DNA of 63,715 nt, counting the filler, from Lenisia limosa (lineage: Eukaryota; Protista; Breviatea), in NCBI GenBank assembly GCA_001655205.1. It is 5 parts of 5 records of this genome, joined end to end, with 100 filler letters (N's around TTAATTAATTAA, not from the genome) between each part and the next. Parts side by side here need not be neighbours in the genome. Positions count along the whole stretch, not along the records: positions 1 to 21,956 come from LPNZ01005441.1; 4 more parts are not named here. The stretch is one strand, 5' to 3'. Every line of letters starts with the position of its first letter. Within the stretch, counting starts at the first letter, position 1. The notes below the pieces were generated by a model that was not told where the DNA came from, did no database searches, and saw only the letters and a program-made list of their open reading frames with translations. Made by a program: the position numbers and the translations under genes. Of the stretch, positions 8,510 to 18,957 are shown in pieces.

Positions 8510-9181
8510 ATGCTGAGAGTATATTCATTGATTTAACTCAGTTTCATTCATTGAAGCAATACCCAGGAAGAGAGAAGAATGTTGCACTGTCTGCAAACAT
8601 ACGACTGCAAAAAGGTTCGATGATGATTTTGTCATAGACTTGGGTGAACTTGCTTTACCTGCCTCTTGTGACATTTCATTTCCAGATGCAAGTGATCTGT
8701 TTTGTTTTCAATTAAAAGGTTTTTTTACACAGTAAAGTTAGTGTCTCCAGATGAAGGGATATATTGTGGTGGAAGTTTTGTTTTTAGGTTTCAGATTCCA
8801 ATCAATTTTCCTCATTCTCCACCCAAGATTGTGTGTCTCTCCAAGGTTATTGAATATCTTCAAAAGATTTTTCACCCAAACATTGACCCAGACGGAAATA
8901 TTTGTTTGAATATTTTGAGAGAGGATTGGAATCCAGTTTTAAGTATAAATTCAACAGTATATGGAATCCAGTTTCTTTTTTTAGAGCCTAATTGTGATGA
9001 CCCGCTCAATAAAGGTTTGGCATGTTATTCTTTTTCTGAGTCACAGGATGTAAATTGCTCTTTTGTATTAGAGTGTAACAGATGTGCTAGAGTTATTTTT
9101 TTAACTAACCGAACTATGAGTTTTTTTCAAACATTTATTTTTTATTTTTGTCTTTTCACCCTCAAGAATATTCGTATTTAA
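8510..9181 (+). CDS. UBC12: NEDD8-conjugating enzyme UBC12 (UBE2M-like) with tiny introns; 3' end uncertain
   Basis: Spliced product MLR|FHSLKQ...[16 protein letters not shown]...[19 protein letters not shown]...[58 protein letters not shown]. Introns 8519-8541, 8615-8637, 8719-8741 (23 nt each) and 8846-8866 (21 nt), all [13 protein letters not shown] is the UBC12-type active-site signature. Confidence 0.9.
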
Positions 9182-9532
9182 TTATTTTTTTAAAAATAAA
9201 AGCTACTTGATAAGCAATGCAAGACTGTTGTAGTACAAACTTTGACAAGTGTAGTTCTTTTACCTTATTCACTAATATTGACTAATATTTTCCCAGTGGT
9301 AATGTCTATAATGCTGTAAAAACAAAAATATATTGTAAATTGACATAGTATATATATCATATCATACTAAGATACTGGTGACTTGTTAAATAGTGACTGA
9401 TATGTCTTTTCTGCAGGGAAATCGGATTTTGCATCTTTTTATGATTGTAAAAGTGTATTAAAGCCGGAGTTAACTAAAGGTGGTTTAGTCCTCTTTTTTT
9501 ATTTTGGAAAATAATAATAAAAGTATGGTAAG

Positions 9533-9634
9533 TAGGAATTCCCTACGGTCTGAAAAAGACCGGTAAAATATCGATATTTATCGAGAATTTATCGAGAAAT
9601 TCAGTTTTTCTTCGGGCCCGTAGGGAAGGCCCTA
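9533..9634. mobile_element. MITE variant sharing the core of the hAT-type MITE family but with different terminal repeats
   Basis: Core GAAAAAGACCGGTAAAATATCGAT...TTTATCGAGAAATTCAGT is near-identical to the copy at 63098; ends are TAGGAATTCCCTACGG and CCGTAGGGAAGGCCCTA. Confidence 0.7.
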
Positions 9635-15396: not shown

Positions 15397-15510
15397 TGGC
15401 ATTCGGGATTTCCGCGGTTGTTTTGTGGAGGTTCCGAGAGACGAACGAGGCTTAGCCGAGTGAGAACCAAGGAACCTCCGCAAAACAACCTCGAAAATCC
15501 TGGAATGCCA
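15397..15510. repeat. Foldback/MITE-like inverted repeat with ~40-bp arms
   Basis: 15397-15435 is the near reverse complement of 15471-15510; 12-bp direct repeat CATATCCCCTCG at 15367-15378 and 15509-15520. Confidence 0.75.
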
Positions 15511-17517
15511 TATCCCCTCGGAAACATATGGCATAACATATTTGTTCTATCACCGCAAGGCACAAAAATACATTGTCTATACAATTATACAGGGCTAAAT
15601 GTAAGTAACAATGAACTGTTGCCCATTTTGAAATTAGATTTGTACCTGTGTCAAAAAAACAATTTCAGTTAAACAATCGGGTAAAATCGGGTTTAGTGTC
15701 AGCATATGATATGTATGAAATAGGCGTTTTATCCTTTGTTTAACTTTGAAATCTTCGAAAACAAAAGGAAAAAACTGTTAGGGCCAGGAAAAACCACTGT
15801 CACTGACAGGAAAACCNNNNNNNNNNTACAATTTCAGTTAAAAAATCGGGTAAAATCGGGTTTAGTGTCAGTAGCATATATATATGATATGTTGTATTTC
15901 CATAAAATTGCAAAATAATGAATAATTTGTCAATTATCAATCTTTTTATATATGTTGTGTTGAATAGATTTTAGATGAGCGAGCGTTCATTTTTCTATCA
16001 GTTTACAATGTTATTGTTTATTCCTTTTCCCCATGACCAGCAACAGTCAAAAAGGTCTCCAAAACGTGTTCCAATTTCAATATTCATTCAGTANNNNNNN
16101 NNNCTAGCATATGATATGTATGAAATAGGCGTTTTATCCTTTGTTTAACTTTGAAATCTTGGAAAACAAAAGGAAAAAACTGTTAGGGCCAGGAAAAACC
16201 ACTGTCACTGACAGGAAAACCAATTCACTTCCAACCTTTTGTATTTCTCAATTCCTCTGAGTAGCATGATTAGCTTAGGGTCTTCACTGCGGAGGCAAAC
16301 TCAAAAGTGGACTTGGAGTGGCTGTATGGAAGCTTCAAACAAGCTAATGCTGAGTTCTGTACAATCTCAAAGAGCATAGGGAACTGAGCGAAAGAGGTAG
16401 GAGGCGCGTATGCCGCAAGCAGAATAAGTATCCGAGAACAATCGGCTTTGCTTTGCATCACAAATTTGATAACTGCTCAGAGAAACATCATACCAGAGGA
16501 TTTGTGACTTGCATACTCTGACTGAACGTCCTCGCAGAGGCCTTGAAGGAATGGCATGCGAGACTCTGCTTCGAGTGCTGTGCTTCTGCGGCTAAACTTG
16601 GCCAATGAAGCAGAGTTGAAGACTTGTGGTTGTTGAGGGGGCTCAGATTGGTTTGGCAATGATGACGGAATAACTATGGGCACTTCATCTTTAAAAAAAG
16701 ACTTTTGTGCAGTAGAACAGTTACTACACTGCTGTGAGCCAGGTAAGGCAGAATTGTCGGACCGAGCTGGTTGAGAGGGTGGCAATATCTCATGTCCACC
16801 TTGATTATGGGTCTTGCTCCAGGAAACATATTTCATTCGTGGGTGTATAATTTTCAAAGTCGATGATATATAGTATTATGACATGACATATCAACACTAT
16901 TTTTTATACAATATTCATACTTCAGAGATGCAGCATCAGTCGCAGTACAGGATGTAGTGGTGGTTTGAAGGTTTTATCCATCAACGTTGGTTAGGTGCTG
17001 CTGAACCAGGGCACATTTAAAGATGCTCTCAAGCTTAAATGTATGAAATTCACAATTTTATTCTTCTTGGTTTCTGCATCTGTATTTAGACAAGTTATTC
17101 AATGATATATGAGGATTTTGATGAATTTTTTTTGAAAATTGACATACACTAGCTGGGAAACCGAGCCGAGTTTCTGGTTTACCAACCTGCTTTAAGACTT
17201 CGAACACAAAACCTGAGTCAAACTTAAGTCAATCCCTAAGAATTCTTACTAAAAAAAATAACTCGCAAAATTGATGCTTTTGGCGTCAAAAAAATAGAAT
17301 TTGGATGACGTCACCGAAACTTTTTGTTGGGATATCCGTGACAACTTTCTGGGTTGGCACTCTGCAACGTAACATTATTAACCTCAGAAAATCTTATGCA
17401 ATTACCAAAAAATGCGGTCACTATGTCCTCAAAATACGCCATTTTTGAAGAATGTTTCGCGAAAAGAAGAGCGTGCTTCGGATATCCCAGACTTTCCACA
17501 TTTAACAAAACAAGATA

Positions 17518-18957
17518 TTATTGGTTTCCACAAGCTACTCCAGGTACATTATCATGCTGTTGGGTGTCATCATCGGAATCATAAGCTTCATTTCTTCCAC
17601 TATCCTCCTAAAATAAAAATAACATCTTAATACCACGCTCTTTGGACTTTGACGAATTAACACACATTCCTCAGCATCAGCATCACCTAACACAACATTG
17701 GAAGGAGGAAGGCAATTTTGAAGACATTTAACAGCAGTTTCATTGAGTGAATTGAACTTAGGAAACGTAACATCAAATTGAATGAATAATTTGCCTAAAT
17801 GAACGTTTCAAAAAACCAAAAGTAAATGGTTGCTTAAATTTAGGCATTCCTTCATTCTCAATGGCTCGAAAATCCCCTGGCTTAATAATTTCGCCAACAC
17901 AGGACTGAATCTTGAGAACCCGACCATCTAATTGTTTCACAAAAAAGCAGAATCCTGTAAGTGCCTCCAATAATGTAATAGTCTTTTGAGCATGAAGGTC
18001 CATATTGTCACAGTTAACAATATAAAAAACTTCTCTGAAAAACACCATGCTCCTTTTGCTGTAAAACAATCACAACATCACCTGGCGGCCGTAAGAAGCA
18101 ATAACAAACCTCAATTCCGGGAGTTTGATCTCCTTCTCCCTTAAAATATATTTTTTGTCCATCTTTCATTCCTCTATCAATATTAACTTCAAGCACTTTC
18201 TTTTCAACAACTTTTTAAATAGTGCACAAAATACTAGTTTTATGCCCACTACACTTTTTGCAATGTTTACCAAGAGGAATTGAGCATCCCTGTCCATCAC
18301 ATGATGAACATTTCACTTGCATCTGCTGCATCATACCAGGACCAATCTTGGAATAAAAGAAAATATAAACCTGGCGAATAACCACCTTGACTCCTTGCCC
18401 TTTACATTCAACACATTTTGTATTGGTTACACTGGAAGCGCAGCCACGACAAATTATCCCAATTAAAATACCCATTACACATTGAGCAGATGACATTTTT
18501 TTGCAAAGATAATCTGGTTTTTTTCCCTAACAATAAAAAACAATTATAAAACCTTTATACAGATCTTCCAAAGTTACTTTCAAAGGATGTGTCAAATTTT
18601 CACCTTTTCTTGGGCCCTTTCTTCCACCTCCTCCAAAAACTCCACCAAAAAGTTGTGAAAACAGGTCAGAGTCATGATCAATCCCTTCTTTCAGTCCCTC
18701 CTCTCCGTACTTATCATAAATGCTCCTTTTTTCGGGATCACTCAGGATATCATACACCATTGATATTTCTTTGAACAATATTATTCAAAAAAAAAAGAAC
18801 TTTATCAGCTCCAGAAGGATTTCTATCAGGATGAAATTGCATTGCAAGTTTTCTATAAGACTTTTTAATAGTTGAGTCATCGGCAAAAAATGAATGGATA
18901 AACAAAACCTTCAGGGTTAACTCCTAATATGTCGTAAAACTTAGTGTCTGCTACCAT
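17518..18957 (-). CDS. DNAJA: Type I Hsp40 co-chaperone (DNAJA/Ydj1 family), 11 exons, ten introns of 22-26 nt
   Basis: [39 protein letters not shown] (J domain, HPD), G/F region, four zinc-finger repeats ([32 protein letters not shown]), peptide-binding domain, C-terminal CGNQ* (CaaX-like). No exonic stop or frameshift once the introns are removed. Confidence 0.93.

Follow-up and report, generated by a model that had tools for sequence, protein, structure and literature searches.

In the alga Micromonas, BOC1 introns are short and AT-rich, lack a branch motif and in 34 cases carry TG or CG acceptors (PMC3879977), and BOC1 genes are expressed housekeeping genes interrupted by AT-rich introns of 40-65 bp (PMC3491373). 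Introns in the mating-type regions of the Mamiellales are shorter and GC-poorer and have less G at position +5, which the authors trace to the loss of GC-biased gene conversion together with deletion bias once recombination had ceased (PMC13298755). Here we describe what appears to be a related pattern in Lenisia limosa, a member of the Breviatea, which form the deepest branch within Obazoa, and whose genome and transcriptome have been described as highly fragmented (bioRxiv 10.64898/2026.01.29.702055). The window, that is, the whole 63,715-nt stretch analysed (assembly GCA_001655205.1), consists of five scaffolds with linkers at 21957, 38147, 49773 and 59184: genes with tiny introns, namely UBC12 (NEDD8 E2), DnaJA and an ankyrin-repeat gene fragment, lie on scaffolds 1 and 3, and genes with conventional introns on scaffolds 2 and 4. 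The window holds two intron classes whose genes also differ in codon usage; five of the 14 verified tiny introns end in acceptors other than AG, and both classes are removed from a single transcript. An earlier interpretation made from the DNA alone (the sequence-only reading) had proposed two gene architectures; its account mentioned no TG or CG acceptors and did not raise erosion of a region without recombination, the known explanation that comes closest.

The 15 tiny introns (four in UBC12, ten in DnaJA, one in the ankyrin fragment) span 21-27 nt, and 14 of them, of 21-26 nt, are fixed by transcript-derived proteins, the ankyrin intron being predicted. Tracing by eye yielded 36 conventional introns in six genes, all GT-AG and 37-283 nt long, which agrees with the range of about 35-300 nt proposed earlier for such genes; the count excludes the genes at 28.9-30.4 and 31-34 kb, along with any junction that was ambiguous or crossed a gap. 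No intron of 28-36 nt occurred among the 15 tiny and 36 by-eye introns. The classes differ further in the frequency of a G at +5, a base that played no part in the tracing (two of 15 tiny versus 33 of 36 conventional introns), in intron GC content (0.24 versus 0.39) and in branch-like motifs, present in 4/15 and 23/36 introns in a comparison biased by length. Coding sequence divides as well: GC at synonymous third codon positions (GC3s) is 159/642 (0.25) in the tiny-intron genes versus 548/978 (0.56) in the conventional ones, and the values for the three tiny-intron genes (0.21-0.26) do not overlap with those for segments of five conventional genes (0.47-0.72), recomputed after one AK7 segment with a mis-set frame had been excluded. 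Codons and introns inside one gene are not independent, and at the level of genes the comparison is three against five. This comparison of codon profiles, which the sequence-only reading had called for, bore out its contrast between A/T-ending codons in tiny-intron genes and GC-richer conventional exons, and the split proved sharper than it had claimed.

The DnaJA coding region (17518..18957, minus strand) comprises 11 exons and ten introns of 22-26 nt, and its 399-aa gene model is identical at 399/399 residues to P0148, an isoform protein labelled Lenisia limosa. When donor-acceptor pairs within 15 nt of each junction were enumerated, half of the ten introns allowed a GT-AG solution. Among GT-starting solutions, only GT-TG is available for intron 1 (18884..18908, 25 nt), intron 2 (18776..18800, 25 nt), intron 4 (18450..18471, 22 nt) and intron 8 (18009..18030, 22 nt), for the last of which it is the only solution of any kind, and only GT-CG for intron 7 (18086..18109, 24 nt). 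These four GT-TG introns and one GT-CG intron, all on the minus strand and established from protein sequence rather than nucleotide-level reads, are the five non-AG cases among the verified tiny introns; with the predicted 27-nt GT-TG intron of the ankyrin fragment (41010-41036, plus strand), TG or CG acceptors occur in six of 15. Expression is evident from RNA contig pieces that cover DnaJA exons at depths of up to 306, one of which has a loose end that matches the following exon across intron 3. The DnaJA region is present in two public runs of a single study, a DNA-like run with 0.87 of the words and a polyA metatranscriptome with 0.21; read and contig depth was analysed over 16300-20760, where RNA bins without cover count as no evidence. 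In EukProt, the source label Lenisia limosa is attached to both P0002, which matches the UBC12 stretch, and P0121, which matches a DnaJA exon. Two of the four DnaJA isoform proteins, P0121 and P0147, have tails that do not match the window and are probably adapter or mis-assembly products.

The UBC12 coding region (8510..13807, plus strand; six exons; Pfam UQ_con) encodes 164 aa, and the gene model matches the transcript-derived protein P0002 at 164/164 residues. P0002 fixes four tiny GT-AG introns (8519-8541, 8615-8637, 8719-8741 and 8846-8866) and also lacks intron 5 (9015-13727), a repeat-filled GT-AG intron of 4,713 nt with a G at +5, an AG acceptor and a branch-like motif close to its 3' end; the same enumeration of junctions gave a GT-AG solution for all five UBC12 introns. 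A single UBC12 pre-mRNA is thus spliced in both modes. Because its transcript loses both intron types, the option of one genome with two intron-recognition modes, already raised by the sequence-only reading, gains support, and the accompanying statement that these genes have only 21-27-nt introns does not hold. The ankyrin fragment (40908..46872, plus strand; GC3s 0.21) is predicted to be built alike, with Pfam Ank matches on both sides of a repeat-filled intron of 5,635 nt (41139-46773) that has a G at +5 and an AG acceptor; the reading frame is kept, and the gene likely continues at 46774. Tiny-intron genes therefore carry both intron classes, according to a transcript-derived protein in UBC12 and to prediction in the ankyrin fragment.

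The last base is G in all 15 tiny introns, none of the six non-AG introns has an AG at 21-27 nt from its donor, and in UBC12 intron 3 an AG at 19 nt is bypassed; these three features lead us to infer that length governs the choice of site and that the acceptor is relaxed. Length would be the main guide to where a tiny intron is cut, the site being a G that lies 21-27 nt from the GT, with AG used if present there and TG or CG otherwise, and the long introns of the same gene would require full splice signals. U12 (minor) introns have a conserved extended 5' motif and branch point; the tiny introns have T at +3 in 11/15 and A in 4/15, mostly T at +5, and no common branch motif, and were rejected as members of that class. 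Introner elements were likewise rejected: no tiny intron appeared among the repeats and self-matches of the window, a search insensitive at 21-27 nt, and 14 of the sequences differ by eye. Nucleomorphs and Paramecium have tiny introns genome-wide, as do Stentor (PMC9505925) and Mikrocytos, whose introns never depart from 16-17 nt and show high sequence conservation (PMC10245619). With these systems the tiny introns here share a narrow range of lengths, which suggests recognition by length; there, however, the whole genome is of the tiny type, in contrast to the window, where tiny introns coexist with introns of 37-283 nt and of several kilobases and their signals are degenerate. Yeast lacking Prp18 shows that a spliceosome is able to use non-AG acceptors, in that case non-YAG 3' splice sites behind U-rich tracts, but the junctions described there are error products of a mutant, unlike those here, which are required and apparently constitutive (PMC10711555).

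Judged by feature set alone, the tiny-intron genes of the window appear to behave like the BOC1 region in a stronger form. In both, one genome holds two intron classes, the algal cases (termed mating-type or UV regions) being known from Micromonas, Bathycoccus and Ostreococcus; introns of the unusual class are short, rich in A and T and poor in branch motifs, carry a G at +5 less often, end in TG or CG in some cases, and interrupt expressed, low-GC housekeeping genes. We found each of these traits here: introns shorter and AT-richer than the conventional ones, splice signals weakened at +5, acceptor and branch motif, and low-GC coding sequence in the transcribed housekeeping genes UBC12 and DnaJA. 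The Mamiellales belong to an unrelated supergroup, however, and the +5 G, which falls from 92% to 13% between the classes here, drops by 8-23% in the algae; multi-kilobase, repeat-filled introns within the same genes are a further difference. Drosophila heterochromatic and dot-chromosome genes and the sex-determining regions of brown algae combine AT-rich codons, transposon-swollen introns and low gene density under low recombination, and to our knowledge have neither a tiny-intron class nor frequent non-AG acceptors. Searches of the literature on Lenisia and breviate introns, GT-TG short introns and breviate mating type, with subscription papers mostly outside their scope, returned no account of the pattern.

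We give about even odds to the reading that UBC12 and DnaJA are expressed, native breviate genes that have eroded in a compartment long poor in recombination, which may be a mating-type-like region. Were recombination lost, GC-biased gene conversion would cease, third positions and introns would drift to about 25% GC, and deletion bias would shorten introns as far as splicing permits; under weak selection the +5 G and the acceptor A would decay, proteins would change faster, and transposons would accumulate in intergenic DNA and in those few introns that are long. A bolder version, which we regard as doubtful, holds that Lenisia has a large, old, non-recombining mating-type-like chromosome region in which essential genes depend on length-measuring splicing with about 40% non-AG acceptors, beside normal splicing on the same transcript.

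Several observations weigh against erosion in such a compartment. The sample of tiny-intron genes is only three, on two scaffolds of 22 and 12 kb, and that these represent a single region is an assumption. Erosion in the algal regions is far milder, with introns of 40-65 nt versus 21-27 nt here and at most about 4% non-AG acceptors (at least 96% canonical) versus 6/15 here; intron retention is a hallmark of the algal regions, and three full-length DnaJA isoform proteins are without any of the ten introns. Depth figures are confined to the DnaJA region and transcript support to UBC12 and DnaJA; scaffold 4, which carries LZTFL1, HGLS and AK7, has no repeat in common with any other scaffold; and in the Pfam scan and by reading, no scaffold combined a tiny-intron gene with an intact conventional host gene, which counts against a single nucleus. 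Finally, the proteins sit on long branches (0.94 versus a median of 0.34 for DnaJA, 1.35 versus 0.14 for UBC12) that would equally fit a parasite donor, no tree included breviate or rozellid rows, and the fungal group used in the topology test described below was chosen after the larger DnaJA tree had been seen.

Those branches bear on an unlikely alternative, namely that DNA of a reduced, fast-evolving eukaryote, such as a parasite or endosymbiont, was integrated into the host nucleus, kept its tiny introns, is expressed and was later invaded by host transposons. The sharp codon contrast and the short UBC12 (164 aa versus 177-183 aa in three relatives) would fit such an origin, as would the many tiny introns typical of reduced parasites (PMC10245619). 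The DnaJA and UBC12 phylogenies proposed in the sequence-only reading were built, and gave long branches without placing either gene: the DnaJA tree was a quick tree of 64 rows, and in the 60-row UBC12 tree the protein joined spiders, a position marked as an artefact of long branches. In a DnaJA tree of 21 rows, the protein fell outside fungi, holozoans and amoebozoan clades and paired, weakly, with the apusomonad Thecamonas (82 in the Shimodaira-Hasegawa-like approximate likelihood-ratio test, SH-aLRT); forcing it together with the four fungal rows of that post hoc group gave p = 0.02 in the approximately unbiased test (p-AU) on the same 21 rows. No donor clade emerged: best matches, at about 50-60% identity, spread over many groups, and no supported group holds UBC12 or DnaJA. 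Metagenomes of the Joint Genome Institute (JGI) yielded 13 DnaJ loci at 33-60% and no close relative. No second Lenisia-labelled copy was found among 20 label-checked matches besides P0002 (best 120 of 6,639 DnaJA matches; three without accession), a weak point against a donor, and the long intron of UBC12 carries host-type signals. Integration of foreign DNA nevertheless keeps some weight because both proteins lie on long branches in trees of non-breviate sequences.

A reading that seems to us quite unlikely is that these are native genes of one genome in which each gene acquires the tiny-intron state individually, through high expression or local chromatin for instance, rather than through its location in a region of suppressed recombination. 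DnaJA is well covered by RNA and UBC12 combines both intron types, as this proposal would allow, but it would leave unexplained the combination of AT codon drift, degraded splice signals and long branches with surroundings that are poor in genes and rich in repeats.

Repeats bear on whether the two kinds of genes share a nucleus. A short inverted-repeat element resembling a miniature inverted-repeat transposable element (MITE) lies in UBC12 intron 5 (9533..9634, strand undefined), matching 63098-63197 by blastn at 82% over 102 nt and 29615-29666 at 81% over 52 nt; its family thus spans this intron and scaffolds 2 and 5 (81-84%), in keeping with the relation to repeats at 29.6 and 37.6 kb reported in the sequence-only reading. 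Copies of this abundant inverted-repeat family of about 100 nt lie at 29585-29683, 37572-37656, 39560-39680, 60338-60596, 61722-61815, 62194-62293 and 63098-63197, several of them within introns traced by eye in conventional genes; in its termini, the copy at 9533 is unlike most others. A second repeat is common to scaffolds 3 and 2 (46688..46751 and 31880-31937, strand undefined; 90.6% over 64 nt, E about 1e-17), so that two families tie the tiny-intron scaffolds to conventional scaffold 2 at 81-91%. Also in UBC12 intron 5 is a broken remnant (12741..13247, minus strand; GC3s 32/42) of an element at 42.6-45.0 kb (tblastx E 1e-6; blastn 78% over 78 nt); earlier offered as a link to conventional genes under the name Kolobok, it connects the two tiny-intron scaffolds with each other and with no other scaffold. 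On scaffolds 1 and 3, GC3s in exons derived from elements is 0.50-0.76, and the element-derived genes there gave ten by-eye GT-AG introns of 42-165 nt, seven with a G at +5 (12 were tried, and two were discarded when their coordinates did not give GT-AG). From these lines, together with the composition and contig data below, we infer that tiny-intron and conventional genes very probably reside in one nucleus.

Were scaffolds 1 and 3 instead from a second eukaryote in the culture, which we consider very unlikely, the common repeats would be related elements or mis-joins. Such a passenger would account for the absence of any scaffold that joins a tiny-intron gene to an intact conventional host gene; depth figures cover only the DnaJA region of scaffold 1, and the RNA library is metatranscriptomic, so its species label cannot exclude a passenger. 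The two shared repeat families stand against it, as do the conventional introns and GC-rich codons of the element genes on scaffolds 1 and 3. A mis-join would not put the last UBC12 exon correctly 4.7 kb downstream. Moreover, a 1,736-nt DNA contig, from a run that may be the assembly's own source, spans DnaJA and enters repeats of depth 200-430 at both sides. The proposed coverage check was made over the DnaJA region and found a contig depth of 43, like that of the flanks (30-43), a figure that is not a copy number. At 19429-19577, a repeat reaches a summed depth of about 1,500 and, in the DNA run, differs by the presence or absence of 32 nt. Neither the GC content of the scaffolds (0.37-0.45) nor the correlations of their tetranucleotide profiles, whose comparison had also been proposed, divide them into two groups, a weak test at such lengths; whole-scaffold GC is 0.39-0.40 for the two unlinked tiny-intron scaffolds and 0.41-0.45 for the conventional ones.

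Giant viruses do carry E2, DnaJ and ankyrin genes, and six viral contigs encode E2 relatives, but an origin of the tiny-intron genes as cargo of a giant transposon or an endogenous giant virus is hardly credible, with those relatives only 32-37% identical and below cellular UBC12, no DnaJA relative among four viral-contig pattern matches, and no viral hallmark in a Pfam scan of 267 reading-frame pieces, a scan that short exons escape.

Among the conventional genes, an LZTFL1-like gene (51538..53608, plus strand; weak Pfam Leu_zip matches) has seven introns of 37-283 nt and GC3s 0.59, and an HGLS/DUF1338 gene (54556..56449, plus strand; weak Pfam HGLS match) has eight of 59-214 nt and GC3s 0.47, both traced by eye. 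The AG at every traced junction of these two genes, reported before, was seen again; the all-AG result for conventional introns is partly circular because tracing presupposed GT-AG. Searches with an LZTFL1 exon returned two unrelated proteins and no LZTFL1 transcript. An incomplete, gapped leishmanolysin-like (Peptidase_M8) gene (34770-38146, plus strand) contributed 11 introns and has a MITE-like copy in one intron; five more came from an amino-acid transporter, four from AK7, a name taken from the sequence-only reading for a gene without Pfam match, and one from ABCD. Two other multi-exon genes with conventional introns, at 28690-30380 (plus strand) and 31000-34000 (minus strand, WD40-like by eye), have no Pfam match. 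Scaffolds 2 and 4 have many assembly gaps at intronic poly-G or poly-C runs, and G/C runs of at least 8 nt number 7.4 per 10 kb on scaffold 2 versus 0.9 on scaffold 1.

Within the predicted ankyrin intron lies the intron-containing element of 42560-45050 (plus strand), with a cysteine-rich part and an acidic tail; a partial inverted copy of it is at 39761-40058. The Kolobok label found no support: 14 element exons gave no Pfam match of note at E up to 1, and no Atlas match. A piggyBac-type transposase (48450-49760, minus strand; Pfam DDE_Tnp_1_7, with domain support only at 48.9-49.3 kb) contains a frameshift as well as introns of spliceosomal type. The stretch 49720-49772 is matched by a repeat at 40639-40692, and a degenerate tandem array of about eight copies of a 49-nt unit occupies 60707-61112.

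Whatever the cause, the occurrence of GT-TG and GT-CG introns of 22-25 nt together with ordinary and multi-kilobase introns in one nucleus offers a natural test of how 3' splice sites are chosen. Gene predictors that require AG will break tiny-intron genes, an effect that may contribute to the apparent lack of some genes in Lenisia limosa. If erosion in a recombination-poor compartment is the correct explanation, these genes would represent an independent and more extreme case of splice-signal erosion than the algal mating-type regions, which would make the model testable in another supergroup, and would point to a region in breviates that is a candidate for sex linkage or for a lack of recombination on other grounds. 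Should that region prove to be mating-type-like, it would provide a first genomic hint of sex determination in breviates, which branch deepest on the line leading to animals and fungi, with erosion carried far past the algal cases.

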